From: Planctomycetota bacterium
GTDB lineage: Bacteria; Planctomycetota; PLA2; JAEUHO01
DNA: 64,000 nucleotides
Direction of reading: 5' to 3'
NCBI GenBank assembly: GCA_030066775.1
Contig: JASJAY010000001.1
Location: 4,612-68,611 of the forward strand
Below, piece after piece: positions 7,031 through 25,946 of this stretch. A program made the position numbers and the translations under genes. Every line of letters begins with the position of its first letter. The stretch's first letter is position 1. The notes beneath the pieces are model-generated. The model was not told where the DNA came from. It made no database searches and saw nothing but the letters and a program-made list of their open reading frames with translations.

Positions 7031-7188
7031 GGGGGGAGACTCCTGCGTGCGTGCGTATGGGTGTCGTGAAACGCACACGCCGTACCACGGCCGCGGGCCC
7101 CAATTTCTGGGGCTCGGGGCAGTCGAGTGTAACGCTCGCGCTACACCGGTCACCGTTCCGGAAGGACCCCGGTGTTACCGTCCCGCGC

Positions 7189-8235
7189 GTGCGCCTCGAG
7201 GACCTCGAATACGACCTGCCGCCGGCCTTGATCGCCCAGGAGCCCCCGGCTCGCCGGGGCGACTCGCGCCTGCTCGTCCTGCCCCGCTCCGAGGGCCCGG
7301 TCCGGCACCAGGGCATCGCCGATCTAGGCACCCTGCTGAGCCCCGGCGACCTGTTGGTCGTGAACGACACCCGCGTGCTGGCAGCGCGCCTGGACGCGCG
7401 GCGCGAGACCGGCGGCCGGGTCGAGGTGCTGTTCCTCGAGCCGGTCCCGGGCCTCGAGGGCGTCTGGAGCGCGCTGCTCAAGGCCGGTGGGCGACCCCAG
7501 CCGGGGGAGCGCCTCGAGGTGGGGCTGGACGTGGGAATCCGCCTCGTGGCGCGCGGAGCGGGCGCGACCTGGCATGTGCGCCCCGAGGGCGCCACGGCCG
7601 CCGAGCTGATGGCCACGTACGGGCGCATGCCGCTACCGCCCTACATCGAGCGGAAGGCGGGCGACGAGCGAGCGACCCTGGACGAGCGCCGCTACCAGAC
7701 CGTCTACGCCGCCACGGAGGGCGCCGTTGCGGCCCCGACGGCGGGCCTGCATCTCACGGATGCGATGCTGGCGTCCCTGCGCGAGCTGGGCGTGGAGATC
7801 GCCACGGTCACGCTCCACGTCGGCCTCGGTACGTTCGAGCCCGTCCGCGTCGACGACCTCGACGAGCACGACATGCACGTCGAGCGCTTCGAGCTGCCCG
7901 CGGCCACGGTCGAGGCGGTGCGGCGGGCTCGGGCGCGCGGGGGCCGCGTCGTTGCCGTGGGGACCACCAGCGTGCGCGCGCTCGAGGCCGCGGCCGCGGA
8001 CAGCTCCGATGACCTGCCGCGGGCCGGTGCCTCGACCACCGGGCTGCTCATCCAGCCGGGCTATCGATTCCGCGTCGTGAACAGTCTGCTCACGAACTTC
8101 CACCTGCCGCGCTCCACCCTGCTCGCCCTCGTCTTCGCCTTCGCAACCCGAGCACGCGTGCTCGACGCCTATGCGGAGGCGATTCGTAGCGGCTATCGCT
8201 TCTACAGCTACGGCGACGCCATGCTGCTCCTCTGA
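7189..8235 (+). CDS. queA: S-adenosylmethionine:tRNA ribosyltransferase-isomerase
   Basis: N-terminus VRLEDLEYDLPPALIAQEP matches the QueA consensus (cf. E. coli MRVTDFSFELPESLIAHYP). Length about 349 aa; probable GTG start inside ORF 7051..8235. Confidence 0.85.
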   Translation: MRLEDLEYDLPPALIAQEPPARRGDSRLLVLPRSEGPVRHQGIADLGTLLSPGDLLVVNDTRVLAARLDARRETGGRVEVLFLEPVPGLEGVWSALLKAGGRPQPGERLEVGLDVGIRLVARGAGATWHVRPEGATAAELMATYGRMPLPPYIERKAGDERATLDERRYQTVYAATEGAVAAPTAGLHLTDAMLASLRELGVEIATVTLHVGLGTFEPVRVDDLDEHDMHVERFELPAATVEAVRRARARGGRVVAVGTTSVRALEAAAADSSDDLPRAGASTTGLLIQPGYRFRVVNSLLTNFHLPRSTLLALVFAFATRARVLDAYAEAIRSGYRFYSYGDAMLLL

Positions 8236-8369
8236 CCCTCTCGCTGCGCAGCCGTGCGCAGGCACCCCTCGGAATCGGCCGGGTCGTCCACAATTCGATG
8301 GTTCCGATCCTCTGTATCAATCCAGTCGATAGACTCCCGCGCGAGGGGACGGCAAGGGCAGGGCAGCGG

Positions 8370-9851
8370 ATGACGGACGTCTCCCTCGAACCGGGGCAGG
8401 CCATTGACGCGGTATGGTCGGAGCGCGCGCGCGGGCTCTCGCCCGCCCAGCAGGACGCGCTCCTCGAGCGGGCGGACGCGATCCGCAACGAGCCCGAGGG
8501 TGCCGCGTCGGCGTACGGGTGCTACCTGGCGCTGCAAGAGCGCCTCCACCTCTCTCGGCCGGCGGATGTAGAGCGCACGATCTGGCTCTTCGAGCACATG
8601 GAGGTCGCCGATCCCAGCCTCATGCTCCTCGCTCGCGCTGCCGCCGAGACGACGGCGTGCACGGAGCTCTGGTTCCAGGGGCGGCTGCGGGTCGCGCAGA
8701 TCGAGCGCGAGCAGGGCCACATCCGCGCGGCCGAGAAGCTCCTGTTCGTGCTCCTGGGGGACGTCGCGGGCCAAGACGAGCGCTGGGAGGCGCTCGTGGC
8801 GGCGAACCTGTCGCTCTGCTTGCGACACCTCAACCGCGAGGTCGAGGCGCTCGTCCTCTGCCGGCGAGCCCTGGCCGGATTCGAGCGGCTCGGCGACCGG
8901 CGTCGGGCGATCCGCGTGCGTCAGGTGGTCCAGAACATCCTCATCTCGTTCCATGACTGGCGGCGCTATGAGCGTGAGCGCGAACGGCTCGAGCGCGACA
9001 TCCCCGAGCTCGCCGAAGCGGAACGTCGTCAGGTCGACATGTCGGACCTGATGATGCGCGCCCAGGCCGCCTTCGAGCGCAACGCGTTCGACACGGCGCT
9101 CGTTCACCTCGACGAGGTCGAGGCGCGGTTCTCGCATCGTCGGACTTGGGCCCTCGTGACGCGCGCGTTCGTTCTCGCCGTGATGGGGCGTGGCAGCGAG
9201 GCCCTGGCCGTGCTCGGCGCCGACCCCGCCGAGCACGAGTACGGTCCGCAGTACTCGATTCAGAACGACACCACGCGAGTCCTCTGCGCCCTCCAGAGCC
9301 AGGCGCCCGACGAGGTCGAGAAGACGGCGACCGCGTTCCTGGATCGCCTCGAGGCGGGGACCGAACCGCCGGGCAACCGGATCACCATGCTCCTGCACGT
9401 GGCCCGTGAGCTGGGGCGCCTGGGGGAGCACGGCGCGCTCGCCAAGCGCGCCTACGACCTCGCGGCAGCCGCGATCGTCGAGCGCATCCTCGAGGTCGAT
9501 CGTTTCGCCCGCGAACGGCCTACGCTCATCGAGCTCTCGGCCGAGGAGCGCAGCACGCTCGGCGAGCTGCGTATCCGCCTGCTCGCCCGGCACGAGGAGC
9601 TCATGCGTGCCGTTGGTCGGCTGCTCTTGGAGGCGCGTGCCCGCGGGGAGCCGATGCCCTCGGAGTGGTACGGCAGCGAAGGTCTGCTCTGCGTCTGTGC
9701 CTGGTGCGGGCGCATGAAGCGCGGGGACGACGGCTGGGTGCCGGTGGGGGCGTTCATCCCCGACGACAGCACGCTGCAGCTCACGCACGACATCTGTCCC
9801 GACTGCTATCACGAGCGAGCCCAGAACGGCAACGCCACCAAGTCGTCCTGA
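8370..9851 (+). CDS. Hypothetical alpha-helical protein with a C-terminal Cys-rich (zinc-ribbon-like) segment
   Basis: Balanced composition, unlike the Arg/Pro-rich antisense ORF 8208..9983. C-terminus has CVCAWCGRMK...HDICPDCYH. Start taken at MTDVSLEPG, internal to ORF 8298..9851. Confidence 0.5.
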   Translation: MTDVSLEPGQAIDAVWSERARGLSPAQQDALLERADAIRNEPEGAASAYGCYLALQERLHLSRPADVERTIWLFEHMEVADPSLMLLARAAAETTACTELWFQGRLRVAQIEREQGHIRAAEKLLFVLLGDVAGQDERWEALVAANLSLCLRHLNREVEALVLCRRALAGFERLGDRRRAIRVRQVVQNILISFHDWRRYERERERLERDIPELAEAERRQVDMSDLMMRAQAAFERNAFDTALVHLDEVEARFSHRRTWALVTRAFVLAVMGRGSEALAVLGADPAEHEYGPQYSIQNDTTRVLCALQSQAPDEVEKTATAFLDRLEAGTEPPGNRITMLLHVARELGRLGEHGALAKRAYDLAAAAIVERILEVDRFARERPTLIELSAEERSTLGELRIRLLARHEELMRAVGRLLLEARARGEPMPSEWYGSEGLLCVCAWCGRMKRGDDGWVPVGAFIPDDSTLQLTHDICPDCYHERAQNGNATKSS

Positions 9852-9880: not shown

Positions 9881-11008
9881 GTGAACGACGCCCTAGACGT
9901 CCTGAAGCGCGCCGCCGCCAAGCTCGGCTTCGAGGTCGTGGGCGTGACGTCGGCCAGGCCCGTCGAGGCGGCGCTCGCAGCACTCGAGACCTGGAGCGAG
10001 GCCGGCAACGCTGCCGCGCTTGGCTACATGACGCGCAACCCCCCGGAGCGCGCCGATCCTCGCACGTTGCTCGACGGCGTGCGCACGGTGGTCACGGTGG
10101 CCGTCAACTACCACGTCGACGTGCCCGCCTTCGAGCACGAGGCACGCTTCGGTCGCGTGGCGCGATACGCCTGGGGCCTCGACTACCACGACGTCGTGAT
10201 TCCCAGGCTGCGTCAGCTCGCTGACGAGCTCGCCGCGACCTTCGGCGGCAAGGCGCGCGCCGCCTGCGACCACTCCCCGATCCTCGAGCGCGCATTCGCC
10301 GAGCGCGCGGGCCTCGGCTTCTTCGGCAAGAACACCTGCCTGCTCCTCCCGCGCAAGGGGTCGTGGTACTTCCTCGGCGAGGTGCTCCTCGAGGCCGAGC
10401 TGCCCACGACGGACCGCGAGAGCACCGACCACTGCGGCACGTGCACCGACTGCATGCCGGCCTGTCCGACGGACGCGTTCCCCGCGCCCTACGTGCTGGA
10501 TGCACGCCGCTGCATCTCGTACCTGACCATCGAGCACAAGGGCTCCATCCCGCACGACCTGCGTCCGTTGATGGGGGCCTGGGTCTTCGGCTGCGACGAC
10601 TGCCAGGACGTCTGCCCGTTCAACCGCTTCGCCAGCGAAGCCACCTGGCCCGAACTCCATCCCGATCGCGGTGTCGGTCAACGGCTCGACCTCGCCGATG
10701 TGCTCGCCATCGAGACCGACGACGCTTTCCGCGCGCGCTTCCGGAACACCCCGCTCTTGCGTCCCAAGCGTCGGGGCTTGCTCCGGAACGCCGCGATCGC
10801 AGCACGCAACGTCGAAGCCACAGCTGCCATCCCGGCCTTGCGCGCCCGCCTCAGTGATCCAGAGCCGCTGCTTCGCGAGGCGGCCCTATGGGCGCTCGAG
10901 GGACTGACGCCGGACGAAGTCCGAAATCATGCGGATATGCTTCGATCGGACGAAGACGGGGCTGTTGTGGCCGAGGCCGCCCGGATCCTGGGTGGGGGAG
11001 CGGCCTGA
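9881..11008 (+). CDS. queG: Epoxyqueuosine reductase
   Basis: N-terminus LDVLKRAAAKLGFEVVGVTSA resembles the QueG N-terminus. Two 4Fe-4S cysteine motifs (CGTCTDCMPACPT; GCDDCQDVCP). GTG at 9881 is in frame; the nearby ATG at 9873 is out of frame. Confidence 0.85.
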   Translation: MNDALDVLKRAAAKLGFEVVGVTSARPVEAALAALETWSEAGNAAALGYMTRNPPERADPRTLLDGVRTVVTVAVNYHVDVPAFEHEARFGRVARYAWGLDYHDVVIPRLRQLADELAATFGGKARAACDHSPILERAFAERAGLGFFGKNTCLLLPRKGSWYFLGEVLLEAELPTTDRESTDHCGTCTDCMPACPTDAFPAPYVLDARRCISYLTIEHKGSIPHDLRPLMGAWVFGCDDCQDVCPFNRFASEATWPELHPDRGVGQRLDLADVLAIETDDAFRARFRNTPLLRPKRRGLLRNAAIAARNVEATAAIPALRARLSDPEPLLREAALWALEGLTPDEVRNHADMLRSDEDGAVVAEAARILGGGAA

Positions 11009-11077
11009 GCCGCCCTCACGGGAATCCGTCCGCCTCACGCCCCTCCTGAGTAGACTTTGCGTCCCCATCTCTAGCGT

Positions 11078-11155
11078 CGGGGCGTGGCGCAGATTTGGTA
11101 GCGCGCCTGAATGGGGTTCAGGAGGTCGCTGGTTCGAGTCCAGTCGCCCCGACCA
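11078..11155 (+). tRNA. tRNA-Pro (anticodon GGG), CCA encoded
   Basis: Cloverleaf read by hand. Acceptor CGGGGCG/CGCCCCG, D-stem GCGC/GCGC, anticodon stem CCTGA/TCAGG with loop ATGGGGT (U33, GGG, G37), T-arm GCTGG-TTCGAGT-CCAGT, discriminator A, then CCA. Confidence 0.8.
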
Positions 11156-11171
11156 TTTCCCTTCTCCCTCC
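11135..11171 (+). repeat. Direct repeat copy 1 (attL-like): T-arm/acceptor 3' end of tRNA-Pro plus 16 nt of downstream flank
   Basis: cgagtccagtcgccccgaccatttcccttctccctcc recurs at 14610..14646 with 4 mismatches. Confidence 0.6.
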
Positions 11172-11422
11172 ACAACGGCACCCGATGAGTGACCTACGTG
11201 GATCGCTGCGACCGGGTTGGGTGGATAGCCTGCGACAGTGAGCTGCTTGCGCGCCGCCCGTCCCTCTTCCAAGTCAGTGGCGCCCAGGACGTCCTTGATG
11301 CACGACAGGGGGCCCTGTCCTTCAGGCGGAAGAGCAAGACACATCCGGAGCGGATGCCCGCTGAGAGTCCCACGACGGTCCGCAGGGGGATCCAACGGGT
11401 CGACGTAGTACGATCGCCTTCG

Positions 11423-14400
11423 ATGAACCTGGCTCGATCGCCGCGCGACCTCGCCACGCCTCGCAATGGCTTGCAGCGGTGGCACGGAGCCGTGGGCGCC
11501 GTTCTGTTCCTGGCGTACGTGCTGGTCCCTTCCGCAGCGCCGGCGAAACCTGACGAGGTCTTCGACGCGAACGGGTTGGTGGCGCGGTACACGTTCGAGG
11601 AAGGAACGGGATCCACGCTCCAGGATCACAGCGGAAAGGCGCATCACGGGCGCATCCGAGGCGCGACCTGGGTCGACACGCCCATGGGCGGCGCACTGCA
11701 GTTCAACGGTCGGGATGCCGTGACCGACCTGGGCCGGCCCCGCGGTCTCAACCTGGATGGTGACCTGACCATCGAGGTGTGGCTGCGGGCGTCCCTCGCC
11801 ACGATGAAACGCGGCACACAGCCCTTGATCTTCGGCATGAACGCCGGCCCAACGAAGACCCGCAACTACAACCTGCGGATCGATCACAAGCAACGCCTCC
11901 GGTTCGAGTGGGGCGACGGAGAGGCCGGGAGCTTCGTATCGACCTCCGCTGGGTTTCTGAACGGAGCCTGGCGCTACGTCGCCGTGGTCGTCGACTCGGG
12001 TAGCGGCGTGCACATGTTCGTCGACGGCAGCCTCGTGCACACGCAACGGGCCTCGATGCCGATCGTGGCGCGTCCGCCGCAGAACGTGACGATCGGGGGC
12101 TGGGGGCCGGGCTACTTCCAGGGGGAGATCGCCGAGCTCAGGCTCTTCAACCGCGCCCTGTCGACGGGCGAGATCCGGAAGCACGCGGGCCTCGAACCCG
12201 ACTCGGTCAAGGCGGCCCTGCGGCTGCATCCCTCCCACGACGTCCGCGGCAAGCGGGTGCACTGCGACGTGTTCGTAGAGTCAGGCGCTGCGCGGAATCC
12301 GTGGCTCGAGATCCGGCTCACAGACGCGCGCTCCGGTCGAGCGCTGGCGTCGACGAAGCGGAAGCTGGGAGCGCGGGGGAAGTCGGTCTCCCACTCGTGG
12401 CAGCGCGTGTCCATCCCGGCCGACATCCCGGCAGAGGGGATCGTGCGGGCGGAAGCGAGGTTGCTCGACGGACGGAGGAAGGAACTGGCGCGCGCCGGGG
12501 TCATCCGGGAGCTCGCGCCGGGCTGGCTGACGGCCGGGGTCGGCGTGTCGAACGAAGTCCCGCCTCCCTGGACCCCTTGTGTGACTCGCAAACAGAAGGG
12601 GCAGGTCACGGTCGACGTGTGGGGCCGGAAGCACCGCTTCGGTCGCGGCCCCCTGCTGGAATCCCTGACGAGCGGTGGTGCAGAGCTGCTGGCTGGGCCC
12701 ATTCGTCTGCCGGCGGCAGCGGGCGGTCGCGCCTTGCGGTGGAAGTGGAGCCCCCCGAAGCTCGTGGACTCCGAGGCGCGTCGGGTGGTCATCCGGCAGA
12801 GCGCTGTGGCCGGCGGCCTCCGTCTCACCTTGGACACGCAGCTCGAGTACGACGGCCTGTTGTGGACCGAAGCGCGACTCAGTACGCGCCGGGCCATCGA
12901 GATCGATCGGCTGGCCCTTGAGATCCCCCTGCCGGCCGATCAGGCAACGCTGCTCAACGTCTGGCGGGATCGAACCGCGTACGCGGGCCTCCTGAAGACG
13001 GATTTCGCCCACGCGTTCGCGCCGCTCCTGTGGATCGGGAACGAGCAGCGAGGACTGAGCTTCTGCGCCGAGTCGGATCAACACTGGGCGCCGGCCGACC
13101 CGGATCGTGCCCTCGAGGTCCAGCGCGTCGGCGACGAGACCCGACTGCGACTCAACTTCGTCACGCGGCCCAGCAGGCTGGCACCGGGTCGGCCCTGGAC
13201 GTATGCCTTCGGACTGCAGGGAACGCCCGTGCGTCCGATCGTCAAGAGCTACTGGGACCTTCGCGTCCACCGGATGCCCGTGTACAGCCGCGAGCTGGAG
13301 TGGCCCAAGCGGACGATCGGCGACACGCCGGCGCTCCAGCACTACGCCGAGCGTGGCGCCCGCGCCCTGATCGCCTGGGAATGGTGCGACACGTTCTCGT
13401 ACATGCTGCCGGTCGGGCGCGAGGAGTCCTTCCGCGCGCTTGTAGCCGCAATGGATGCACGCAGCCTGAAGGTGCTGCCGTACTCCATCGGGTTTCTCCT
13501 GAGTGATCGCGCACCAGAGTTCGACGGCTGGTCCGATGAGTTCCTACGTAAACCGCGGAGAGAGTTTCCCAGTCTCGGACCCGTCCTTCAGGACATCCCG
13601 CAGTCGATGTACTTCACGTGCCCCAACGGCCTCTGGAAGGACTTCGCCGTTGCGATGGCGGCGCGCTGCATGCAGGAGTATGGAGCCGGCGGCGTCTACC
13701 TGGACACGACCACGAGGCCGTTCGCCTGCCAGAACGGGTGTCACGGCTGTGGGTACACTGCGCCGGACGGCCGGCGCGTATCGACCTACCCGGTGCGAGG
13801 GGCGCGTGAGCTCATGAGGCGACTGCGCACGGCGGTCAAGGCATGCGATGCCGACGGGATTGTCGACGTGCATCCGTTCGACTGCTTGAACGTGCCCGCC
13901 CTGGCATACGCCGACGGCATGTGGATCGGCGAGCATCTGAGGCGCGTACCTCACAAGATCGACGCGCTGCCCCTCGACCGCTTCCGAACCGAGATCCTTG
14001 GACGCAACCTCGGGATCCCCTCCGACCTGCTCTACTACCGGCTGGCCGACTACGAGGCCTGCCTCGCCCTCGCGCTGCTGCACGACGTGCCGGTTCGCAG
14101 CGAGAAGGACGCCGATATCGACATTCTGGCGCAGGTCTACCGCATTCGGGACGCGTTCGGCTGTCGGGAGTCAGAGTTCATCGGGTACTGGGAGGTCGGC
14201 GACCGCATCCGCGTGTCCGGTCGGGACTGCCACGCGAGCCTGTGGAAGCATCCGAAACAGGGCGTGCTGGTCGTGATCTCGAACCTCTCGAGAGAAGAAG
14301 CGAACCTCGAGATCACGTTCGACCTTGCCGCCCTGGGCATCGGCTCAGGCGTCTCGGCCTACGACGAACGTCACGGCAAGCCGCTACCTATCAAGGGCGG

Positions 14401-14461
14401 CACCATCCGGTTGGCCCTACCCTCGCAGCAGTGGACGCTCGTGCGGATTCCACGCCGTTGA
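11423..14461 (+). CDS. Large LamG/concanavalin-A-like-lectin domain protein with a putative glycoside-hydrolase-like C-terminal region (membrane-anchored or secreted)
   Basis: N-terminal hydrophobic anchor. Laminin-G-like block (GAWRYVAVVVDSGSGVHMFVDGSLV...GEIAELRLFNRALSTGEI), then about 700 aa of unknown, possibly TIM-barrel, region. The start (ATG 11423 versus 11357) is uncertain. This is the only gene between the two tRNA-derived direct repeats. Confidence 0.55.
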   Translation: MNLARSPRDLATPRNGLQRWHGAVGAVLFLAYVLVPSAAPAKPDEVFDANGLVARYTFEEGTGSTLQDHSGKAHHGRIRGATWVDTPMGGALQFNGRDAVTDLGRPRGLNLDGDLTIEVWLRASLATMKRGTQPLIFGMNAGPTKTRNYNLRIDHKQRLRFEWGDGEAGSFVSTSAGFLNGAWRYVAVVVDSGSGVHMFVDGSLVHTQRASMPIVARPPQNVTIGGWGPGYFQGEIAELRLFNRALSTGEIRKHAGLEPDSVKAALRLHPSHDVRGKRVHCDVFVESGAARNPWLEIRLTDARSGRALASTKRKLGARGKSVSHSWQRVSIPADIPAEGIVRAEARLLDGRRKELARAGVIRELAPGWLTAGVGVSNEVPPPWTPCVTRKQKGQVTVDVWGRKHRFGRGPLLESLTSGGAELLAGPIRLPAAAGGRALRWKWSPPKLVDSEARRVVIRQSAVAGGLRLTLDTQLEYDGLLWTEARLSTRRAIEIDRLALEIPLPADQATLLNVWRDRTAYAGLLKTDFAHAFAPLLWIGNEQRGLSFCAESDQHWAPADPDRALEVQRVGDETRLRLNFVTRPSRLAPGRPWTYAFGLQGTPVRPIVKSYWDLRVHRMPVYSRELEWPKRTIGDTPALQHYAERGARALIAWEWCDTFSYMLPVGREESFRALVAAMDARSLKVLPYSIGFLLSDRAPEFDGWSDEFLRKPRREFPSLGPVLQDIPQSMYFTCPNGLWKDFAVAMAARCMQEYGAGGVYLDTTTRPFACQNGCHGCGYTAPDGRRVSTYPVRGARELMRRLRTAVKACDADGIVDVHPFDCLNVPALAYADGMWIGEHLRRVPHKIDALPLDRFRTEILGRNLGIPSDLLYYRLADYEACLALALLHDVPVRSEKDADIDILAQVYRIRDAFGCRESEFIGYWEVGDRIRVSGRDCHASLWKHPKQGVLVVISNLSREEANLEITFDLAALGIGSGVSAYDERHGKPLPIKGGTIRLALPSQQWTLVRIPRR

Positions 14462-14609
14462 GCAGACGACTGCACTTCCGGGGGGCCTTGCCGCTGTACG
14501 TGGCCGCACGGCCTCCACGGCGGGATCCCGGAGGCGTGCGCGGAGCTGGAGGCTGCAGACGCCTACATCTCCAGCCTCACCGCCCACGAGACGGGTCGCG
14601 GATATGTAC

Positions 14610-14646
14610 CGACTCGGCTCGCCCCGACCATTTCCCTTCTTCCTCC
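14610..14646 (+). repeat. Direct repeat copy 2 (attR-like): degenerate copy of the tRNA-Pro 3' end plus flank
   Basis: cgactcggctcgccccgaccatttcccttcttcctcc. 33 of 37 bases match 11135..11171, and all mismatches fall in the T-stem part. Confidence 0.6.
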
Positions 14647-14702
14647 GTCACGGAAGGCTCCCTGAGCTTGTCGAAGGGCCCGATGAGCGATCGCCAGGGA
14701 GC

Positions 14703-15221
14703 GTGCCGTTGTCGACGCTGGAGCTAGGAGTCCGCGCCGCGGTCGTCGAGGATGCGGATGGCATCGCCCGCGTCGCCGCATCCGACGGGACCCAAACCAG
14801 GACCGAGATCCTTCCTCTGATCCGGACCGAGCTCGAGGAGATCGCAAGCGGCAAGCTGCATCGCTACACGTGCGTAGCCGAGGTCGATGGGACGATCGTG
14901 GGCTACGGTCGCTGCGCGGGCGACGACACGTTCACCAAGGGGTTCCCCCAGTTGCCCGATGGTTGGTACCTGTCCGGCGTCCTGGTGCTGCCGTCCAGTC
15001 GCCGTCGAGGCGTCGGCAGAGCGCTAACGCAGCACCGCATGGAGTGGCTACGCGAGCGCACCGAGATCGTCTACTTCCTCACGTCGGAGACCAACGTGCC
15101 CTCTGTGGCGCTCCACTCGGAGTTCGGCTTCGTGGAGATCCAGCGCGGCATTCCGCCCAAGACCGGGGACACACGCGGGATTCCGAGATGCCTCTTCCGA
15201 GCTCGGTTCAGCGACTCCTAG
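14703..15221 (+). CDS. GNAT-family N-acetyltransferase
   Basis: Acetyl-CoA-binding motif (VLPSSRRRGVGRALTQHRMEWL) in a GNAT fold of about 170 aa. The start codon (GTG 14703 or ATG 14604) is uncertain; the ATG option would read through the attR-like repeat. Confidence 0.6.
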   Translation: MPLSTLELGVRAAVVEDADGIARVAASDGTQTRTEILPLIRTELEEIASGKLHRYTCVAEVDGTIVGYGRCAGDDTFTKGFPQLPDGWYLSGVLVLPSSRRRGVGRALTQHRMEWLRERTEIVYFLTSETNVPSVALHSEFGFVEIQRGIPPKTGDTRGIPRCLFRARFSDS

Positions 15222-17029
15222 AAGCCGCCGTCTGCGTTGAAGCGGGCCAGGAACATGCCGTCATCTGCCGCGGGGCGGAGCGTGGTCTCGTTCGCCTCGC
15301 CCGCCCCGAAAGTCGAGTCACGACTGTACGCCTGGAAACCCAGCACGATGCACGAGCCGTCTGCGACAGCTGCGATGCCGAGGCCAGGTGAACCCAGCTC
15401 GCCCGCTGCGGTCTTGGCCCAGCTCAGCGTGCCGTCCGCCTTGTAGCGCGCCACGAGCAATCCGGTCGAACCGAACTGCGTAAGCGTGGTCGCGTTGGCC
15501 TCGCCCGCTCCGAAGATCGGGCTGCGAGCAAAGCTGCCTGTGACGACGCATGAGCCGTCCGCATGGGCAGCGATATCGAACCCGTTGCTCCTGCCATCCG
15601 TACCACCGTGGGTCTTCGCCCAGCGCAACGTGCCGTCCGCCCCGTACGAAGCGACGAACATGCTGGTCGAGGGCTGCGGGGAGAGTACGGAACCTCCCTT
15701 GACTGACGTGAGTGTGGTCTCGTTGGCCTCGCCCGCGCCGAAAGTGGCCGTGTCCTCGAACAAGCCGGTCACCACACACGACCCGTCCGCACGGGTTGCG
15801 ATGCCTTGGCCGTGGGCGTTCCCCGGGCTGCTTACGGCCCGTGCCCAGGTCAGCGTCCCGTCCACGCCGTAATGCGCTACGAAGAAGGCAGCGGCGAGCA
15901 CTTGGCCCCCTTGTGTCAGTGTCGTCTCGTTGGTCTCGCCTACGCCGAAGGTCACGCTGCCCGAGAATCCTCCCGTCACAACGCACGAGCCATCCGCGTT
16001 GGCTGCGATGTCCCGCCCGTAGCCTGTGCTGGTCAGCTCCCCAGGGCGCGCGGAGCCGGCGGCCTTGGCCCAAGTCAGCGTGCCGTCAGCGCCGTAGCGC
16101 GCGACGAAGCAGTCGCTGTAGCCCAAGGGGGTGATCGTCGTCTCGTTGATCTCTCCGACCCCGAAGGTCTCCGGCCTCCGCAGGATGCCCGTCACGACGC
16201 ACGAGCCGTCCGCGTACGTGGCGACGCCCTCGATGAAGCCGCCCTCCCGCTTGAGCCAGCGCAGCGTACCGTTCGCGTCGTAGCGCGCCACGAACGTGAG
16301 GCCCGCCAAGATGTACGAGCCGTCCGCGAAGGCGGCGATGCACTTGCCGCCGCCCTCCGCGATCTTGGCCCAGGTCAGCGTTCCGTCCGCGCCGTAGCGC
16401 GCAACGAAGGGACCGGTGTCGAGCGTGGTCTCGTTCGCCTCGCCGATTCCAAGAGTCTGGCCGCCCGAGACCGTGCCCGTGACGAGGCACGAGCCGTCGG
16501 GGAGGGCTGCGACGTCCTCGCCCGCGGTAATGCCGGGATAGCTCGTGCCACCCGCCAGCTTGGCCCAAGCTACGTTGCGAACCTCGACGCGACCTGGCGC
16601 GGTGGCCGTCACCCGGGTGTTCGTGCCATCCCAGGTCGTGCCCACGATGGTGTAGACCCCCTCCTTGGTGGTGGCCTGGGGCGTCAGATTCAGCGACAGC
16701 TGCTGGGTGATTCCGTCCATCTCATCCCGGGGGCCGCTGGTCGCGCAGCCGAGCGGGTCGATGCGCGTCTCATCACAGTCGAGATCCGCCGTGATCCAGG
16801 TGACAGCGGCATCGTCGGGGTCGTCGTCCGCGTACTCGATGGCGATGGTCGTGCTTGCGCCCCGACTCAGGACGACGTCCCTCGACGGCTCCGTGATCGT
16901 GAGGGTGGGGGGGGTGTTGATCAGCACGCCCGTGGGGGCCAGATCGCTACCCCCGCCGGAGGCGCCACAGCCGGCCAGCAAGAGGAGAACGGCAGCGCTC
17001 AACACGCCCACGACGAACCACGTACGCAT
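15218..17029 (-). CDS. Lipoprotein with tandem SBBP-type beta-propeller repeats
   Basis: Start MRTWFVVGVLSAAVLLLLAGCGA (lipobox LAGC) is preceded by GGAGG. At least 8 repeats of roughly 45 aa with consensus FVARYGADGTLTWAK...ADGSCVVTG...FGxGExNETTLT, matching SBBP repeats common in Myxococcota. Confidence 0.7.
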   Translation of the reverse strand: MRTWFVVGVLSAAVLLLLAGCGASGGGSDLAPTGVLINTPPTLTITEPSRDVVLSRGASTTIAIEYADDDPDDAAVTWITADLDCDETRIDPLGCATSGPRDEMDGITQQLSLNLTPQATTKEGVYTIVGTTWDGTNTRVTATAPGRVEVRNVAWAKLAGGTSYPGITAGEDVAALPDGSCLVTGTVSGGQTLGIGEANETTLDTGPFVARYGADGTLTWAKIAEGGGKCIAAFADGSYILAGLTFVARYDANGTLRWLKREGGFIEGVATYADGSCVVTGILRRPETFGVGEINETTITPLGYSDCFVARYGADGTLTWAKAAGSARPGELTSTGYGRDIAANADGSCVVTGGFSGSVTFGVGETNETTLTQGGQVLAAAFFVAHYGVDGTLTWARAVSSPGNAHGQGIATRADGSCVVTGLFEDTATFGAGEANETTLTSVKGGSVLSPQPSTSMFVASYGADGTLRWAKTHGGTDGRSNGFDIAAHADGSCVVTGSFARSPIFGAGEANATTLTQFGSTGLLVARYKADGTLSWAKTAAGELGSPGLGIAAVADGSCIVLGFQAYSRDSTFGAGEANETTLRPAADDGMFLARFNADGGF

Positions 17030-17265
17030 TGGAACCTCCGTGCGAGAGACCGCGATCCCGTTGCCGGGCACCCGGGCTCACGAAGGGAATGCGTAAGGCG
17101 CGCCTGGACCATCGCGAGTTCGAGGGGATTTCCACGCAGGCCCACGGAGCGGGGCCTGAGGGGGCGCAGACGCCAGTCGTCCCGACCGGTGACGGCGTCG
17201 TGGCCCGGCAGGACACTCCCGCAGTCCCTCCCGCTCATGCGGCCGCTGCATCAAGGGCGGGATGG

Positions 17266-20200
17266 CTACCGCCTGCCGTCTTCGTCCTGTCCGGCGCTCT
17301 GCTCGGCATGCCGACGCGCGTGGACCACCTCGCGCGCCTTCTTCACGAGGTCTCGCGCGAGAGCCTCCACGTCGCCGGCCGGCCCTTTGACCTCAAAGGC
17401 TCCGATCTCCTCGCCGTTCAGCCAGACGAACCCCTTCACGGTCGCTGTGCCGTCGGCCGCGGCGTACGTGCCCGTCAGCTCGTAGGCCTCCGGCATCTCT
17501 GCGACGTCCACGAAGACGAGAGGCGCAATGCCCCGGGCCGACGCTTGCTCGCGCAGCACTGCGTTGGTCGCCGTCACCAGCGCATGCACGACGCGCGTTC
17601 GGCGATCGGTGAAGGTCGGGCGGACGAACACGGGCTTCTCGAGCTGCAGCGGGATGTCCTTGCGAAGCTCGGCTGGTACGCGACCGATGTCGAAGGACGA
17701 TCCGCCATACGGTGTCGCGATCCACGGCCGCTGGATCCCTCCGACGTCACGGGCGAGCTGCGGAACCCGGTCCGCGGCGAACCCGAAGAGACCCTGCACG
17801 TCGACGAACTCGTCCTCGCGGAGCGCCCCGCCGCGCATGCCCAGCAAGAGGGAGTAGGTGAGCAGCCCCTGGCCGTAGCGACTGGCCTCGAAGGAGAGGC
17901 TGTCCGCCGCGCAACCGGCCAAGACGAACATGCCCGTGCGGTCCTTCACCCGGTCGAGCGCACGCACCTGGCTGCTTGGCACGCTTCGGGACTCGGTCAG
18001 CTTCTCGATCACGCGCCCTGCGGCGCACGTATCCAGGATCAAGACCTGCCGGTCCCTGGCGGGGATGGCCTTGATGAGCTCGGTCATCTCACCGCTGGAA
18101 AGCGAAGCCTGCCGGCGGACCACGGGATCGGTCAGGTCGGCGCTGGCTGCCTCGGCGAGGAGGTAGTGGAAGTCCTCGTCCACACCGGCGCGACTCACGC
18201 CGTGCCCGGCCAGGTACACGACGAGCACGTCGTCGGGCCTCGCGGCGCGCGCCCACCGGAAGGCGTCGACGAGGGCTTGGCGCGTGGGTCGGGTCGTGCC
18301 TTCAGCACCCGACGTGCTGAGCACCCGAACGTGTGTGCGCTCCTCACCGAACAATGACCGGGCGCTCAGCTTCAGCGCGCGCGCGAAGTCCTCGGCGTCC
18401 TTGGCGGCGTATCGAAGGTCGATCGCGTCTCCGCGGTAGTCCGAGACGCCGCACACGATCGCCCAGAGCTGTGGCGGCGTCGACGACGTAGCACCGGGCG
18501 CCTTCCAGGGCTTCCGCCCGCCCCGGGGGCTGGAGAGGTACCCATCCTTGTTCCAGGCCACGACTTCGATCGTGTTCAGGCCCCCGGGCTTGATCGATGG
18601 GTGCTTGCGCAGGTCCACGGCAACCGATGCTTGCTTCGCGTCGGCGTTGAAGCCGGCGCCGCGTGCGTCCGCCTCGATCTCCTTCCCGTTGATCAGCACG
18701 CGAACGGCACCGATGCCTCCGCCGCGGTTCGTGAGATCCACGACAAGGAGGCCGTCGTCCCCGGGCGGCTCGAACTGGACGCTTGGGTAGAGGTCCACCC
18801 GATCTGCGGCGCTGACCTTGCGGAGGGGCTCGGTGCTATACCCGGCGTGCTTCGCCCAGAGTCCTGGGTCGTACGCGCGCTTCTTGAGCTGGGCGAGGTC
18901 CACGGTCTCGAAGCCGATGACCCAATGGAGCCCTTCGACATCGCCGCCATTGCTGGCGTCGTATCGACCGTCGCGATCGAAAACCGCCCAGGTGCCGTCC
19001 CGGAACACTACGCGGACGCAGAGCTCGCGGCCGGAAGCGACGTCCCAGAGTCGAACGGTATCGTCGCGCGCCGAGGAGATCGCGCGTTTCTCGTCGCGGG
19101 TGAACGCCACGCTGTAGACCTCGTTCACGTGTCCGCGAAAGCGCTGGAGCTCGCGGCCGCTCTCGAAGTCCCAGAGGATCACGTCATCGTTGTAATTCGC
19201 CGTGAGCAGACGCTTCCCGTCCCGGGAGAATACCGCGTCCAGCGTTCCCGCGAGCCCGTCCAGGGTCCGAACTTCGCGGCCGCTTGCGAGCTCCCACACG
19301 CGGCCCGTGTCGTCGTCGGGGCACACGACGTGCCCGCCATCGGGCGTGAAGAATGCCGAGAGCAGCCGCTGATCCTTGCTCGGAATGGTCAGCACCTCGT
19401 CGCCGGTATCGGTCTTCCGTAGGCGCACGACGCCATCCCGACAAGCGGTCATCACGATCGAACCATCCGCTGAGAACCCCATCGCTCGGAGGTGGCGGGC
19501 GTGCCCATCGAACACGCGCACCTGCTTTCCGGTCGCGACCTCCCAGAGGCGGGCCGTGTTGTCACGGGCGTTCACGCTTGCGGTGAGGATGTACTTCTCA
19601 TCCGGCGAGAACCGTCCGTTCGGAACACCGGTCGTCGGGCCGCTGCGGCGCGGAGCGGCGAAGCTCTTGATCTCGCGCCCCGTCCTCGCGTCGAGGATGC
19701 GCGGGATGTCCCCGCCACCGGTCAGCAGGCGGGAGCCGTCCGCAGAGAACGTCCCCCATGAGACGTAGTCGTCTCCCTCGAAGGTCCAGAGGGGCAAACC
19801 GCTGGACACCTCCCACAACTGCGCCGTACCGCTGCACGTCACGACGGAAGCGCCGTCCGGCGAGACGGTGATGGAGTTGGCCCCTCGCAACTTGCCGCCG
19901 AAGGTGCGAACGAGACTCCCTGTCGCGCGCTCCCAGAGATGCGCAACGGGGAACGAGCCGGTCGCGAAGTGCTTACCGTCGGGCGAGAAGGCCGCCGATA
20001 GCGTGGGGATGGTCGGCGCCTTCACGAGGACGCGTCCCGTGGCGACGTCGAAGATCCGTGCGACGCTCCAGGACGTCGTCAACGCCTGGCTGCCGTCCTT
20101 CGAGAAGGCCACGGCTTTGATCCCGGCGCGCATCTCCATCTCCCGGCCCACGGGCGTGCCCGCGAGCTGTCGGATCTCGCGTCCGGTCGCCACGTCCCAC

Positions 20201-20901
20201 AGGCGCGCCGTCTTGTCCCGAGAGCCAGTCAAGAGCTGCGTACCGTCAGGCGAAACCGCCACGGATTGGATCCAGGCTTCGTGGCCTTCGAACGTGCGGA
20301 CGATGCGGCCGGTGGCGGATTCGATCAGCCATGCGACCTTGTATGAGCCGCCGATGAAGTGCGCCCCGTCGGGCGTCATCGCCACGCAAACGGCCTGGCT
20401 TGGCGTATCGAAGCGCCGCACTTCGCGCCCCGTTTCGATCTCCCAGAATCGGGCGGTCTTGTCCTTGGAGACGGTCAGCGCATGCACGCCGTCCGGTGTG
20501 AAGGCTCCGGCTCGCACACGCTCCTCGTGTCCCTCGAAGCGAAGAAGCTCGCGGCCGGAGGCTGTGTCCCAGATGCGGGCCGTTCCGTCGTACGAGCACG
20601 TCAAGACTCGCGACGCGTCGGGCGAGAACACCGCCTCGCCGACGCGGCTCTCGTGGCCCAGGAACCAGCGGATCTCGCGCCCTGTCGCGACCTCCCAGAG
20701 GCGCGCGGAACTATCGGTTCCGCCGGCCGTGAGCAGATAGCGTCCATCGGGTGAGAACATCACGGAGTCGTTCTCGCCGCTATGCCCCAACTGCACGGTC
20801 AGAACGGCTCTCGCGCCCTCGTCCGGGCCTTGCTCCTCATCCCCCGCCCACACGGGCGCGGTCGCCAGGAGGATCAGCATCCACCTCGATACCCTCGACA
20901 T
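17266..20901 (-). CDS. Secreted WD40-repeat / caspase-like (peptidase C14) fusion protein
   Basis: Signal peptide, then about 14 WD40 blades (recurring ...TARLWDVATGREIR...GH...V..V.FSPDG). C-terminal caspase-fold domain with a His (VVYLAGHGV) and Cys (VLILDTCAAG) catalytic dyad. 1211 aa. Confidence 0.8.
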   Translation of the reverse strand: MSRVSRWMLILLATAPVWAGDEEQGPDEGARAVLTVQLGHSGENDSVMFSPDGRYLLTAGGTDSSARLWEVATGREIRWFLGHESRVGEAVFSPDASRVLTCSYDGTARIWDTASGRELLRFEGHEERVRAGAFTPDGVHALTVSKDKTARFWEIETGREVRRFDTPSQAVCVAMTPDGAHFIGGSYKVAWLIESATGRIVRTFEGHEAWIQSVAVSPDGTQLLTGSRDKTARLWDVATGREIRQLAGTPVGREMEMRAGIKAVAFSKDGSQALTTSWSVARIFDVATGRVLVKAPTIPTLSAAFSPDGKHFATGSFPVAHLWERATGSLVRTFGGKLRGANSITVSPDGASVVTCSGTAQLWEVSSGLPLWTFEGDDYVSWGTFSADGSRLLTGGGDIPRILDARTGREIKSFAAPRRSGPTTGVPNGRFSPDEKYILTASVNARDNTARLWEVATGKQVRVFDGHARHLRAMGFSADGSIVMTACRDGVVRLRKTDTGDEVLTIPSKDQRLLSAFFTPDGGHVVCPDDDTGRVWELASGREVRTLDGLAGTLDAVFSRDGKRLLTANYNDDVILWDFESGRELQRFRGHVNEVYSVAFTRDEKRAISSARDDTVRLWDVASGRELCVRVVFRDGTWAVFDRDGRYDASNGGDVEGLHWVIGFETVDLAQLKKRAYDPGLWAKHAGYSTEPLRKVSAADRVDLYPSVQFEPPGDDGLLVVDLTNRGGGIGAVRVLINGKEIEADARGAGFNADAKQASVAVDLRKHPSIKPGGLNTIEVVAWNKDGYLSSPRGGRKPWKAPGATSSTPPQLWAIVCGVSDYRGDAIDLRYAAKDAEDFARALKLSARSLFGEERTHVRVLSTSGAEGTTRPTRQALVDAFRWARAARPDDVLVVYLAGHGVSRAGVDEDFHYLLAEAASADLTDPVVRRQASLSSGEMTELIKAIPARDRQVLILDTCAAGRVIEKLTESRSVPSSQVRALDRVKDRTGMFVLAGCAADSLSFEASRYGQGLLTYSLLLGMRGGALREDEFVDVQGLFGFAADRVPQLARDVGGIQRPWIATPYGGSSFDIGRVPAELRKDIPLQLEKPVFVRPTFTDRRTRVVHALVTATNAVLREQASARGIAPLVFVDVAEMPEAYELTGTYAAADGTATVKGFVWLNGEEIGAFEVKGPAGDVEALARDLVKKAREVVHARRHAEQSAGQDEDGRR

Positions 20902-21032
20902 CAGGGGGCGATGCTACTCGCCTGAAGGAGCGTCCGTCCAGCCTGCCGATCCCTCTGGTCGGCGGGCTGGCACAGTTGACGTGAGCGCCGAGGCGGGGTT
21001 TCCTCATCCGTTCGTGAGCAAGGGGAGGTCAC

Positions 21033-21551
21033 GTGATCCGCCGTCTGACACCCGGAGACGCACACGCCTTCTTTCGCCTGCGACTCCTCGGCCTCGAGAT
21101 GCACCCGGAAGCGTTCGCGACCGGGGCGGACGCTTGGCGAGAGGCGACACCTGCGCAGGTCGAGGCCACGCTGACCTCGGAGGGCTCGTCTCGAGACAGG
21201 TTCGTGCTCGGGGCGTTCGTCGCCGATGAGCTGGCGGGTCTGCTCGGATTCAGGCGCGAGAGACGGCCGTCCGTTCGGCACAAGGGCAGTCTCTGGGGCT
21301 TCTTCGTTCACCCGGATCACCGCCGAAAGGGCCTCGGTACGGGTCTTCTCCGTGCGGCGCTCGACGAGGTGGCTGCGCAGGGCGGCGTGTCCTTCGTCCG
21401 ACTCGTCGTGACCGCGGGCGACGACGACGCGGCTCGCGTGTTCAGGGCTCAGGGCTTCGAGCCCTATGGCCGGGAGATCGGGGGCCTGCGTTCCGGCAAC
21501 GTGTTCTTCGATCAGGAGTTCATGCGCCGGGACCTGGAAGACGGAGGCTGA
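21033..21551 (+). CDS. GNAT-family N-acetyltransferase
   Basis: 172 aa. Motif A (HPDHRRKGLGTGLLRAAL). GTG start preceded by AGGGGAGG. Confidence 0.75.
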   Translation: MIRRLTPGDAHAFFRLRLLGLEMHPEAFATGADAWREATPAQVEATLTSEGSSRDRFVLGAFVADELAGLLGFRRERRPSVRHKGSLWGFFVHPDHRRKGLGTGLLRAALDEVAAQGGVSFVRLVVTAGDDDAARVFRAQGFEPYGREIGGLRSGNVFFDQEFMRRDLEDGG

Positions 21552-21778
21552 CCCGCTACTTGTCCGCACGCGCGACGGCGAGTCTGCTTCTGCGCGCAGG
21601 ATCCCGCAACGATGCAGTGCGTTACGATGGTCCCGCCTTGCCACGAATCGGTATGCTCCAGATGCCTGGGCATCTGGATCGGTTGTGCGTGTCGCAGGGT
21701 GGCTGCACGTCGGGTGCAGAGCGATCCCCGTCGTGGTGCACTGGCACGCGACTCGGTGCTCAGGACGGGAGGTTCGGC

Positions 21779-22336
21779 ATGACCCATCGGTTCCCCTGCC
21801 CCGTAGCCACGATCTTCTCGCGACGCGTGCGTCCCGGCTTCGAGGCGCGCTACGAGGAGTGGATGTCGGGCATCGTCGGAGCCACCAACGCGTTCCCTGG
21901 AAGCCAGGGCACGACCGTGCTGCGCCCATCTGCCAGTCGCCCGGAGTACCTCGCGATCGTCCAGTTCGACGCCCCGCGCAACCTCGAGCGCTGGATGGAG
22001 TCAGAGGATCGCGCGGCATGGCTGGGGAAGCTCGAGGACATCACGCTCGAGTCGGAGGAGATCTCCTCGATGACCGGCATGGAGCGCTGGTTCACGCTGC
22101 CGGACCGCGCCGTCTCGCAAGCGCCGCCGAAGCACAAGATGGCCGTGGTGATCTTCCTGGGCATCTATCCGTTGATCATGCTCATCGGGGCGCTGCTGCA
22201 GCCGATCGTCGGGCACTGGCCCGTGGCGCCGCGCATCCTCGCGTCGCTGGTGATCACGATTCCGCTCATGACGTGGATCGTGATGCCGTTGCTCACGCGC
22301 CTGTTCTTCGGCTGGCTCTATCCGGAGCCCACCTAG
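21779..22336 (+). CDS. ABM-like (antibiotic-biosynthesis-monooxygenase fold) domain fused to a C-terminal triple-TM segment
   Basis: ATG 21779 is preceded by GGACGGGAGG. N-terminal ~100 aa have an ABM/Dabb-like pattern. The C-terminus VVIFLGIYPLIMLIGALLQPIVGHWPVAPRILASLVITIPLMTWIVMPLL is hydrophobic. Start is internal to ORF 21560..22336. Confidence 0.5.
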   Translation: MTHRFPCPVATIFSRRVRPGFEARYEEWMSGIVGATNAFPGSQGTTVLRPSASRPEYLAIVQFDAPRNLERWMESEDRAAWLGKLEDITLESEEISSMTGMERWFTLPDRAVSQAPPKHKMAVVIFLGIYPLIMLIGALLQPIVGHWPVAPRILASLVITIPLMTWIVMPLLTRLFFGWLYPEPT

Positions 22337-22345
22337 GCCCGGGCT

Positions 22346-23263
22346 TCAGGCGAACGCACCCGCCATGGCGCGCAGACCGGAGAGCGCATCCGCCCAGAGA
22401 CGCCCCGCGTGCGCGGAGCCGGGGTCCAGGCTCTCGATCTCGTCCAGCCACCGCACGCCTTCGTAGACAACGCGTAGGAACAGGACGGCGTCGAACGAAC
22501 GCCGCAGCGTGTCGCGATCGGTGACGCCCCCGAACGCGGAGAGGTACGCGTCGATGACGGCCGCCTTGCGTACAGCGTCGGTCCAGCACGAGTCGAGCAA
22601 TCGGTCACACGCGAAGAAGGGATGGCCGACGACGACGTCGCTCCAATCGAGCAGCGTCGGGCCGCTGTCGGACACCAGGACGTTCTCCGGAACGATGTCG
22701 CGATGCACGAGCGTGTCGGGCACCGGATCGGCCGTAAGCGTTGCGCACGCCTCCTCGATCCGCGGTGTGAGGGACCGAAGCGCATCGCACACGTCCCGTT
22801 CGAGTTCACGAAATGCGGCTGTGAACAGACCCTGGATCGCCGTGAAGAGGTGGTCCCCGGAGAGATCGCGGCAGCGGAGCATGCGCCACTCCTCCGTGTG
22901 CGGTGTCTCCGACACCTGGAGCTCGCCGAGTCGGCGCACGGCAGTGCACCAGAGCTCCGTGGGATCCTCCACGCGCAGGGGGCGCCCGGCGTCGCGCGTA
23001 AGGCTCCAGCCGTGTGCTTCGTCGAGGGCAACTACGACGGCGATGTCCGCGGAGCGCCGCTCCGCAAGGCGGCGGAGGACCGAAGCCTCCGAGGGGCCGT
23101 GACTCTGGTCCTCCTTGAAGTACCAGCGAGCGTCGCCGTCTTCGAGGCAGGCAAGCCAGGACCGCGGGGCGGCGCCGGCGCGGGTCACGTGTACGGCGGC
23201 CGGCGCGAGTGCGGCTCGCACCCACGCCTCCGCGCCTTCCGGCCAGTCGGTCGTCGTGCTCAC
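22346..23263 (-). CDS. Aminoglycoside-phosphotransferase (APH)-family small-molecule kinase
   Basis: Brenner motif HRDIVPENVLV and LLDWSDVVVGHPFFA (DxxxxN / DWE-type). GTG at 23263 with GAGGGG upstream was chosen to avoid a 58 nt overlap with the next gene; the ORF is open up to 23380. Confidence 0.6.
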   Translation of the reverse strand: MSTTTDWPEGAEAWVRAALAPAAVHVTRAGAAPRSWLACLEDGDARWYFKEDQSHGPSEASVLRRLAERRSADIAVVVALDEAHGWSLTRDAGRPLRVEDPTELWCTAVRRLGELQVSETPHTEEWRMLRCRDLSGDHLFTAIQGLFTAAFRELERDVCDALRSLTPRIEEACATLTADPVPDTLVHRDIVPENVLVSDSGPTLLDWSDVVVGHPFFACDRLLDSCWTDAVRKAAVIDAYLSAFGGVTDRDTLRRSFDAVLFLRVVYEGVRWLDEIESLDPGSAHAGRLWADALSGLRAMAGAFA

Positions 23264-23322
23264 GTTCCGCCCCTCGGTCGTCCAACCCGTCGATGATTGC
23301 ACGGCGGGGGCCGCATGGCTCC

Positions 23323-23814
23323 TCACGACCGTGACAGCGGGACCACCTCGCAGTTCTCGAAGGCGAGATGGCCGGGCCACCGGAGGCGGAGCCTCCCGTT
23401 CATGATGCCCGTCGTCCGCATGCCCTCGATGACGCTCAGGTCGGGCGGCACCACCTCACGCACCGTCCTGGTGGCCGACTCGCAGCCGAGTACGACCACG
23501 GCGTCGTGGTTCTTCGCCCGCTTCTGGAGCTTCCTGCGCCGGCGCGCGGTCCACATGCACATGAACCACGTGTGGGGGAGGCGGTTGCGGAAGATGTCGG
23601 TGCGCACACCCTCCTTGGCGAGGCGGTCTTGCAGCGTCTTCAGGTACGCCTCGAATGGTGCGGACTTGACCCAGCTCCTGAAGAACCGCAGGAACGGCCG
23701 CTTCTCTCGTATGGCCACCGTGACGGCCGGGCACAGGTTGCACGGAACGATGAGAGCGGAACGGATGCCTGAGAGCGTCGCAGTGACATCCAGGTCTTCG
23801 AAGTGAACGGGCAT
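23323..23814 (-). CDS. Hypothetical Cys-containing protein
   Basis: 163 aa with balanced composition (the overlapping plus-strand ORFs are Arg-rich). Cys residues in CNLCP and VLGCES contexts. No confident family assignment. Confidence 0.4.
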   Translation of the reverse strand: MPVHFEDLDVTATLSGIRSALIVPCNLCPAVTVAIREKRPFLRFFRSWVKSAPFEAYLKTLQDRLAKEGVRTDIFRNRLPHTWFMCMWTARRRRKLQKRAKNHDAVVVLGCESATRTVREVVPPDLSVIEGMRTTGIMNGRLRLRWPGHLAFENCEVVPLSRS

Positions 23815-24071
23815 GGGTCCATCCCCTTTCGGTCGGTCAGCGCTCGGTCCCCCCTGGGCTCAACGTGTCGGGGCGCCGATGCACGGGCACTGGGATGGGT
23901 ACCAGCGATTTTCGCGCCGCACGGATCGAGCCGCCGACGCGCAGTCCGCCCCAGCGGGATGGCCGCCGGGCTGTCGGGTCGGAGTGGGAATCCCCACCGT
24001 CGTGGGTGCTCCTCCCCAACGCGCGCGGCGGGTGTCAGCACCGGTACGCCTTCGGCGGCGATGCGTCGGGC

Positions 24072-24614: not shown

Positions 24615-24782
24615 GCGGACCTCCCAGATCAGGGCGTACCGTCATGGCGGACGGCCCGCCGTGGGCCAACGCTACCACCACGGCCTCGCTGACCGGAGGG
24701 GGCCCCGGGGATCGAAGGGCTTTCTGGCGGGCGACGCACAGCCCGGGCGCTCGCTCGAGCCCCTGCGCGTAGACTCCGTGCC

Positions 24783-25337: not shown

Positions 25338-25348
25338 CAAGCGCGGCG

Positions 25349-25810: not shown

Positions 25811-25946
25811 CTCGCAGCCTCCTGATGGCAACCACCCTAGACGTCGTCCTCGTGAAATGCAGCCGCTCGGTTGCATTCCGTGCGTGTGTTCGAGGAGGTA
25901 CCCTGGGGGGGCTCCTTTGGGCCCGCCTCGTCGCCGGAGGTCCGAC

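Follow-up and report, generated by a model that had tools for sequence, protein, structure and literature searches.

What does it mean when the end of a tRNA gene is found a second time, 3.5 kb further downstream, with a single gene in between? This question is raised by a stretch of 64,000 nucleotides (nt) from a Planctomycetota metagenome-assembled genome (MAG), the 111.5-kb contig JASJAY010000001.1 of assembly GCA_030066775.1, which we refer to as the window. Here the tail of tRNA-Pro(GGG) recurs beyond one gene that carries a laminin G (LamG) domain. An earlier note, made from the sequence alone, had read the two copies as attachment (att)-like direct repeats of a tRNA-targeting integrative element that now holds one gene and no integrase. 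Our analysis supports this view, as the interval recurs as a module at the same tRNA gene in a second planctomycetal lineage, and the shared sequence breaks off exactly at the CCA end of the tRNA-tail copy. We put at roughly 60% the probability that this interval, hereafter the islet, is an integrase-less, horizontally acquired unit of the cis-mobilizable element (CIME) or decayed-island type, carrying a probable secreted glycan-active enzyme and, if it is mobile, relying on a recombinase supplied in trans.

A duplicated tRNA tail around a single gene

The presumed attachment target is an intact tRNA-Pro(GGG) gene with an encoded CCA end (11078-11155, + strand). It was called by ARAGORN as the single tRNA of the window, and the Rfam tRNA model RF00005, whose gathering score is 29, gives it 57.7 bits. 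The T-loop occupies 11133-11139, the 3' strand of the T-stem 11140-11144, the 3' acceptor strand 11145-11151 and the terminal ACCA 11152-11155. A repeat finder paired 11135-11178, which comprises the last 21 nt of the tRNA and 23 nt of downstream flank (the attL-like copy), with 14610-14653 (the attR-like copy), both on the + strand and identical at 36 of 44 positions (82%). The attR-like copy consists of a diverged T-loop/T-stem part, an exact core at 14619-14640 and what is probably the native chromosomal flank of the tRNA; its tRNA fragment (14610-14630) lies 3.5 kb downstream of tRNA-Pro(GGG) and in the same orientation. The exact core, TCGCCCCGACCATTTCCCTTCT, is 22 nt long, is located at 11144-11165 and 14619-14640, and extends from the last T-stem base over the 3' acceptor strand and discriminator to CCA, with a further 10 nt of flank. 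ARAGORN, Rfam, the repeat finder and the shuffles described below thus confirm the duplication that the earlier note had reported, with two corrections of detail. Over the 37-nt segment given there we count 32 identical positions instead of 33, and the mismatches, said to be confined to the T-stem, fall in the T-loop (11138), the 3' T-stem (11141-11143) and the flank (11166).

Could such a match have arisen by chance, or from a faulty assembly? Even with three mismatches allowed, the 22-nt core occurs only twice in 64 kb and in none of 100 shuffles, and local alignment of the two repeat regions scores 52, against a mean of 20 and a maximum of 27 for shuffles. Repeats as short as 22 nt do not lead assemblers astray, and the arrangement in the second lineage (loci L081 and L082, described below) is present in two independent assemblies. 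With nothing in its favour, an origin by chance or artefact is effectively refuted.

The earlier note had also allowed that the repeat might be a generic element of the repetitive extragenic palindromic (REP) type, present at many other loci. This is not what we found. There are two copies in the window, and when metagenomes were scanned for the 21-nt core and its flank, nine loci only were returned, all of them in unrelated organisms of lower GC content and none a relative of the locus, which argues against a dispersed repeat. Seven of the nine are the 3' ends of called tRNA-Pro genes; at the other two (L088 and L094) only a tRNA 3' half was matched and no tRNA was called. By eye, L088 12568-12645 looks like a tRNA-Pro-like gene that ARAGORN left uncalled, with apparently one mismatch in its acceptor stem; it is followed by the TTTCCCTTCT trailer that the window also has, and L094 holds a similar fragment.

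The downstream copy is intergenic. The cargo gene stops at 14461 and, in the NCBI annotation, the gene for a GNAT acetyltransferase starts at 14709, 78 nt past the CCA of the copy. Of the two placements that had been offered for this start, after the copy or inside it, only the first is therefore right, and the repeat does not sit within a conserved coding sequence, an arrangement that would have spoken against an att-like role. An Rfam scan of 10900-15000 detected only tRNA-Pro(GGG), with no tRNA-like match at the repeat copy.

As the earlier note stated, the copies bracket one convincing gene (11423-14461, + strand) and no integrase: no recombinase family matched in the open reading frames (ORFs) tested. 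The gene encodes 1012 aa and is annotated by NCBI as a DUF6067 family protein (MDJ0972836.1). The protein has a signal-peptide-like N-terminus, and Pfam recognises Laminin_G_3, the LamG domain (PF13385, 5.8e-21), and GH123_N (PF19543, 1.9e-23). Judged from these sequence features, the product is probably a secreted glycan-binding or glycan-degrading enzyme. Homologues with 56% identity are found in glycan-degradation clusters together with fucosidase, GH28 and sialidase-like genes, and there is no tRNA there. The protein has no NCBIfam match, no close solved structure and no relative in the viral collection, and a literature search for DUF6067 gave nothing. A search for sigma-70-like promoters and intrinsic terminators found none.

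The same module at the same tRNA gene in a second lineage

Homologues of the cargo protein with approximately 93-94% amino-acid identity are present in two further Planctomycetota MAGs, GCA_029979655.1 (locus L081) and GCA_029979685.1 (locus L082). At both loci the cargo gene is preceded by a tRNA-Pro(GGG) gene identical to that of the window at 78 of 78 positions. The horizontally shared module covers 11357-14630 of the window (+ strand) and includes a 5' leader, the cargo gene, a 3' arm and the tRNA-tail copy, which we call the mimic. In blastn it aligns at 94% DNA identity with L081 4129-7389 and L082 3733-6993, with weaker similarity from about 11343 on. At its right end, the homology between the window and L081 stops precisely at ...CGCCCCGACCA, the CCA end of the mimic, and in the window as in L081 this 11-nt core is confined to the tRNA end and the mimic. 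The flanking genes are unrelated on both sides: in L081, AHSA1 and a sigma-54 activator gene lie upstream and a methyltransferase gene and other unrelated genes downstream. A third copy of the module, with 91.6% identity, is carried by a 3-kb metagenome contig without flanks (L100).

The sigma-54 activator of L081 and its 196-aa neighbour have syntenic counterparts at 47.3-50.4 kb of the window, and this allowed the age of the module to be compared with that of the genomes. At the protein level the activators are 65% identical and the neighbours about 40-46%. At four-fold degenerate sites, identity is 0.913 for the cargo gene and 0.516, a saturated value, for the syntenic activator. By this comparison the two genomes diverged long before they came to share the module, which points to horizontal transfer; as far as sequence can tell, it was probably transferred recently between divergent lineages.

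Our model of how this came about is as follows. The interval 11156-14630 would be a miniature integrative element without a recombinase gene, either cis-mobilizable or left over from a decayed island, that was inserted into the chromosome through site-specific recombination, the 3' end of tRNA-Pro(GGG) being the target. Its crossover would fall inside CGCCCCGACCA, which comprises the 3' acceptor strand together with discriminator and CCA, a position that would correspond to the T-stem/acceptor 'junction' subsite of tRNA-targeting tyrosine integrases. Recombination there would leave a functional tRNA at the left (attL); at the right (attR) it would join an element-borne arm to the displaced tail of the tRNA and its native trailer. 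The integrase would have been provided in trans, or deleted from the tRNA-proximal side, and the islet could now move only with the enzyme of a related element.

How does this model compare with known tRNA-associated elements? tRNA islands are mapped by taking the intact tDNA and the displaced cognate 3' fragment as endpoints, and the Islander criteria ask for a downstream fragment in the same orientation and outside any conserved protein domain, a length of 2-200 kb and an integrase gene within or overlapping the island (PMC4383910). The islet resembles such islands in its intact tRNA and displaced cognate 3' fragment in direct orientation, in an identity block that starts at the T-stem/acceptor junction (subsite 'J') and in tandem arrays at one tRNA, and it agrees with the definition on every structural point (intact tDNA, cognate fragment, non-coding position and a length of 3.5 kb). 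It differs in being so small, with one gene and no integrase, and in a tRNA-proximal end that is not conserved between its two occurrences. Since the LamG/GH123-like gene is the only gene and no integrase lies within, the islet is not a strict Islander member.

The closer comparison is with CIMEs, which derive from integrative and conjugative elements (ICEs) or integrative and mobilizable elements (IMEs), retain attL and attR after loss of their integration and transfer genes, and often stand in tandem with other units via accretion (PMC5704250, PMC6323972). The islet, too, is bounded by att-like repeats, both candidate copies of which are present and share the exact 22-nt core; it carries no integration or transfer genes, and in L081 it stands in tandem with another unit. 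Unlike the known cases, it resides in a Planctomycetota MAG and not in a Firmicute, it has no recognised helper, and its origin from an ICE or IME is only putative.

A conserved right end and an unshared left end

At their right ends the units share an element of approximately 60 nt, composed of an element-side arm and the tRNA-tail mimic, with the consensus CCRGCCTCNNCGCCCNCRNNACGGGTCGCGNAYRTGTAYCGACTCGGNYCGCCCCRACCA. Three copies are known, at 14571-14630 of the window (+ strand) and at 7330-7389 and 7771-7830 of L081. In all three, the inverted repeat CGGGTCG / CGACTCG is invariant around a variable 11-nt spacer and is followed by the 11-nt tRNA-tail core. The second L081 copy, which was found by a short-word search with the 3' arm, is identical to the first at 49 of 60 positions (score 70, shuffle maximum 35). 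It lies 440 nt further downstream in the same orientation, and its homology ends again at ...CCCCRACCA. One small ORF of about 88 aa, membrane-protein-like, occupies the roughly 440 nt between the copies, and the order in L081 is tRNA-Pro, spacer, LamG gene, element, small ORF, element, chromosome. A tandem of this kind is what insertions repeated at a single att site would be expected to produce. The window holds a single copy of the element, and the viral collection none.

In its left arm, CGGGTCGCGG, the element is similar to the 5' start of the tRNA, CGGGGCGTGG, at 8 of 10 positions; for this arm, CGACTCG and the acceptor-like CGCCCCG are alternative potential pairing partners. Because this arm is tRNA-5'-like and alternatively pairable, the element resembles a collapsed mini-tRNA, not a plain 3' fragment. 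The mini-tRNA-like part covers 14592-14630 in the window and 7351-7389 and 7792-7830 in L081.

An element located 148 nt past the cargo stop codon and containing a stem may be read in another way, namely that nothing here is mobile, that the islet was inherited vertically, and that the tail copy is what remains of an old tandem duplication of tRNA-Pro, or else a signal at the 3' end of the transcript, for termination or processing. The native-like composition of the islet would suit this account. It is hard to reconcile, however, with cargo synonymous sites that are far less diverged than those of the syntenic neighbour, and with flanks that differ on both sides between the genomes. The element folds no better than shuffled sequences (z = -1.3 and +0.8), and no covariation is seen; the small ORF ahead of the second L081 copy is unrelated, and Rfam finds no tRNA match at the copy. 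We regard vertical inheritance as very improbable.

The tandem in L081 brings a further possibility into play. Integron cassettes, and the clusters of attC sites lacking integron-integrases (CALIN), are single-gene units with a recombination element at the 3' end only, arranged head-to-tail by a docking site and with no adjacent recombinase. The units at tRNA-Pro(GGG) are likewise single-gene, conserved in a 3' element only and arrayed by their docking site. All three (the LamG units of the window and L081, and the 440-nt unit of L081) are integrase-less and contain a single ORF; their 3' ends alone are conserved, their 5' ends being unrelated, and the invariant inverted-repeat arms around a variable spacer are reminiscent of recombinase core sites. 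With one ORF in each and nothing but the 3' end in common, the three might belong to an integron-like system, in which units with a 3' site of about 60 nt would be captured serially at tRNA-Pro(GGG) by a recombinase encoded elsewhere. By analogy, Planctomycetota might swap tRNA-anchored cassettes between distant lineages, with the tRNA gene acting as attI, an idea that we put forward only tentatively.

The differences from integrons are nevertheless substantial. The docking site is a tRNA gene, and the end element mimics a tRNA tail and has no attC boxes, neither GTTRRRY nor RYYYAAC being present in 14462-14660. The LamG unit has its own 5' leader, and no conserved 5' cassette element common to both L081 units was found. 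Neither an integron integrase nor any other recombinase family matched in the window ORFs tested, and there is no covariation or other sign of a folded site. Moreover, the three copies come from two lineages only, and tRNA-proximal decay of larger islands yields the same picture. A dedicated cassette system is thus, in our judgement, an unlikely explanation, and we continue to favour a unit of the CIME or decayed-island type.

Either way, the locus provides a sequence-defined candidate attachment site, made up of tRNA-Pro(GGG) and the 60-nt end element, and a probable recent transfer of a gene for a glycan-active enzyme between divergent lineages. To our knowledge, the mobile elements of Planctomycetota are poorly charted. 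The 60-nt element (ACGGGTCGCGNNNNTGTAYCGACTCGGNNCGCCCCRACCA) is directly usable as a probe for the missing recombinase, and can test whether single-gene cassettes are a regular route of gene exchange in the phylum. Should the islet be no more than a decayed island, it would be an unremarkable case of a familiar process.

At the left end the two lineages part. Between the tRNA and the shared module lies a lineage-specific spacer (11156-11342, + strand), which in its first ~23 nt duplicates the flank lying after the right repeat. Beyond these, no relative of the spacer was detected, and neither the window nor the compared loci contain another match to it. Its six-frame peptides gave no Pfam match, and neither integrase remnants nor other recognisable traces of coding sequence were found in the tRNA-proximal spacers of either genome.

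Differing left spacers would be expected from irregular junctions, and they fit a scenario in which the module spread by homologous or homology-facilitated illegitimate recombination, with the tRNA as anchor and the mimic as the passenger relic of an older event. The tRNA, identical between the window and L081 over its whole length, could provide such an anchor. Yet a tRNA anchor would co-transfer the spacer next to it, which is not shared, and the homology breakpoint lies exactly at the mimic CCA in three independent copies. In addition, the duplicated flank of the window requires a Campbell-type single crossover and not a double one. This scenario, too, appears improbable to us.

Several observations also weigh against the interpretation that we prefer, a CIME-type or decayed-island unit. 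The most direct concerns the spacers themselves, which measure 190 nt in the window and 250 nt in L081 and are unrelated (score 18, shuffle mean 18.7); this counts against the interpretation because simple site-specific integration expects element DNA beside the tRNA. Each spacer, furthermore, opens with an in-register partial copy of the terminal flank of its own genome (15 of 16 positions in the window, and 17 of 21 at +10..+30 in L081), and such flank copying is not predicted by a simple integration model. No recombinase, transposase or transfer family matched among ~40 large ORFs across the 64 kb, no recombinase was found among the large ORFs tested in 17 kb of L081, and neither a helper element nor a cognate integrase was found in the window or L081. 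The composition of the islet, in which the earlier note had proposed to look for deviations, is not deviant: its GC of 0.674 and its GC at third codon positions (GC3) of 0.84 are like those of the neighbours and within the range of both genomes, so composition gives no signal. Finally, a single syntenic gene pair is the basis for judging how closely the two genomes are related, and only two genomes are informative.

The flank past the first end element of L081 matches neither the terminal flank nor the spacer start. The spacer anomaly might be explained by mosaic elements with lineage-adapted left arms, by the loss of a tRNA-proximal integrase module, or by composite excision after accretion.

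The native site and the surrounding genes

Is the tRNA gene at its original chromosomal place? The closest queG relative, L097, keeps tRNA-Pro(GGG) directly after queG (7177-7277, the contig stopping 23 nt past the tRNA) and is the only relative to do so; this adjacency indicates that the tRNA of the window, which also follows queG, occupies its native position. We compared the trailers by eye, using the alignment and keeping them in register at the end of the tRNA. At +17..+23 the flank reads CTCACGG in L097, GTCACGG at the right copy of the window and ACAACGG at the left copy. The L097 trailer is nearer to the right copy than to the left, as would be expected if the chromosome had originally carried the right-hand flank. 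The L097 tRNA itself has three T-arm differences from the tRNA of the window (a compensatory T-stem pair and one T-loop base), unlike that of the more differently arranged L081.

Other relatives are more distant. A queG scan of GTDB species representatives gave a best identity of 66%, with no tRNA adjoining queG, and in a large protein database the next-best QueG (71%) and GNAT (49%) revealed no close relative of the window genome. The contexts of the relatives show queA-queG followed by a GT2 gene, and a GNAT homologue in L108 has no tRNA nearby.

tRNA-Pro(GGG) is a used target elsewhere, since proviruses of other bacteria in IMG/VR carry att-type fragments of its 3' half. On two proviral contigs of 56-65% GC (L104 at ~8120-8170 and L106 at ~7175-7224) we observed 5'-truncated tRNA-Pro(GGG) fragments that begin at the anticodon loop and share a longer identity block than that of the window. 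In actinomycete elements of the pSAM2 type, attB is the 3' part of a tRNA-Pro gene and the tRNA is regenerated upon integration; these elements encode int and xis as well as genes for replication and transfer, and their identity block is long, reaching from the anticodon loop. The islet would also use the 3' part of tRNA-Pro, but with a short block that begins only at the acceptor strand, and it has no such genes.

Upstream of the tRNA the window carries queA (7051-8235), a 517-aa ORF without an assigned family, and queG, which ends at 11008. The 517-aa ORF (8298-9851, + strand) has a high GC3 and no Pfam or NCBIfam match; in the relatives L097, L098 and L099, queA and queG are directly adjacent, without this ORF. 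Downstream, the first chromosomal gene past the islet, and outside it, encodes the GNAT N-acetyltransferase (14709-15221, + strand; 170 aa, MDJ0972837.1, Acetyltransf_1 6e-16). It is followed on the - strand by the gene for a 617-aa protein (15218-17071), which has 6-7 internal repeats of ~200-230 nt (repeat families D1-D6) and a weak match to the DUF5122 beta-propeller, and then by the gene for a WD40 protein of 1211 aa (17266-20901). Far from the islet, at 58566-59504 (- strand), a LexA-like protein (HTH_3/HTH_31 and Peptidase_S24) is encoded next to two ORFs without a family match.

The whole stretch past tRNA-Pro may be a flexible region. The genes from about 11400 to 27000 (cargo, GNAT, beta-propeller, WD40, APH-like and DUF3124) mostly have a GC3 of 0.81-0.85; the ORF at 25371-26999 reaches 0.89, and most genes elsewhere in the window lie between 0.86 and 0.94.

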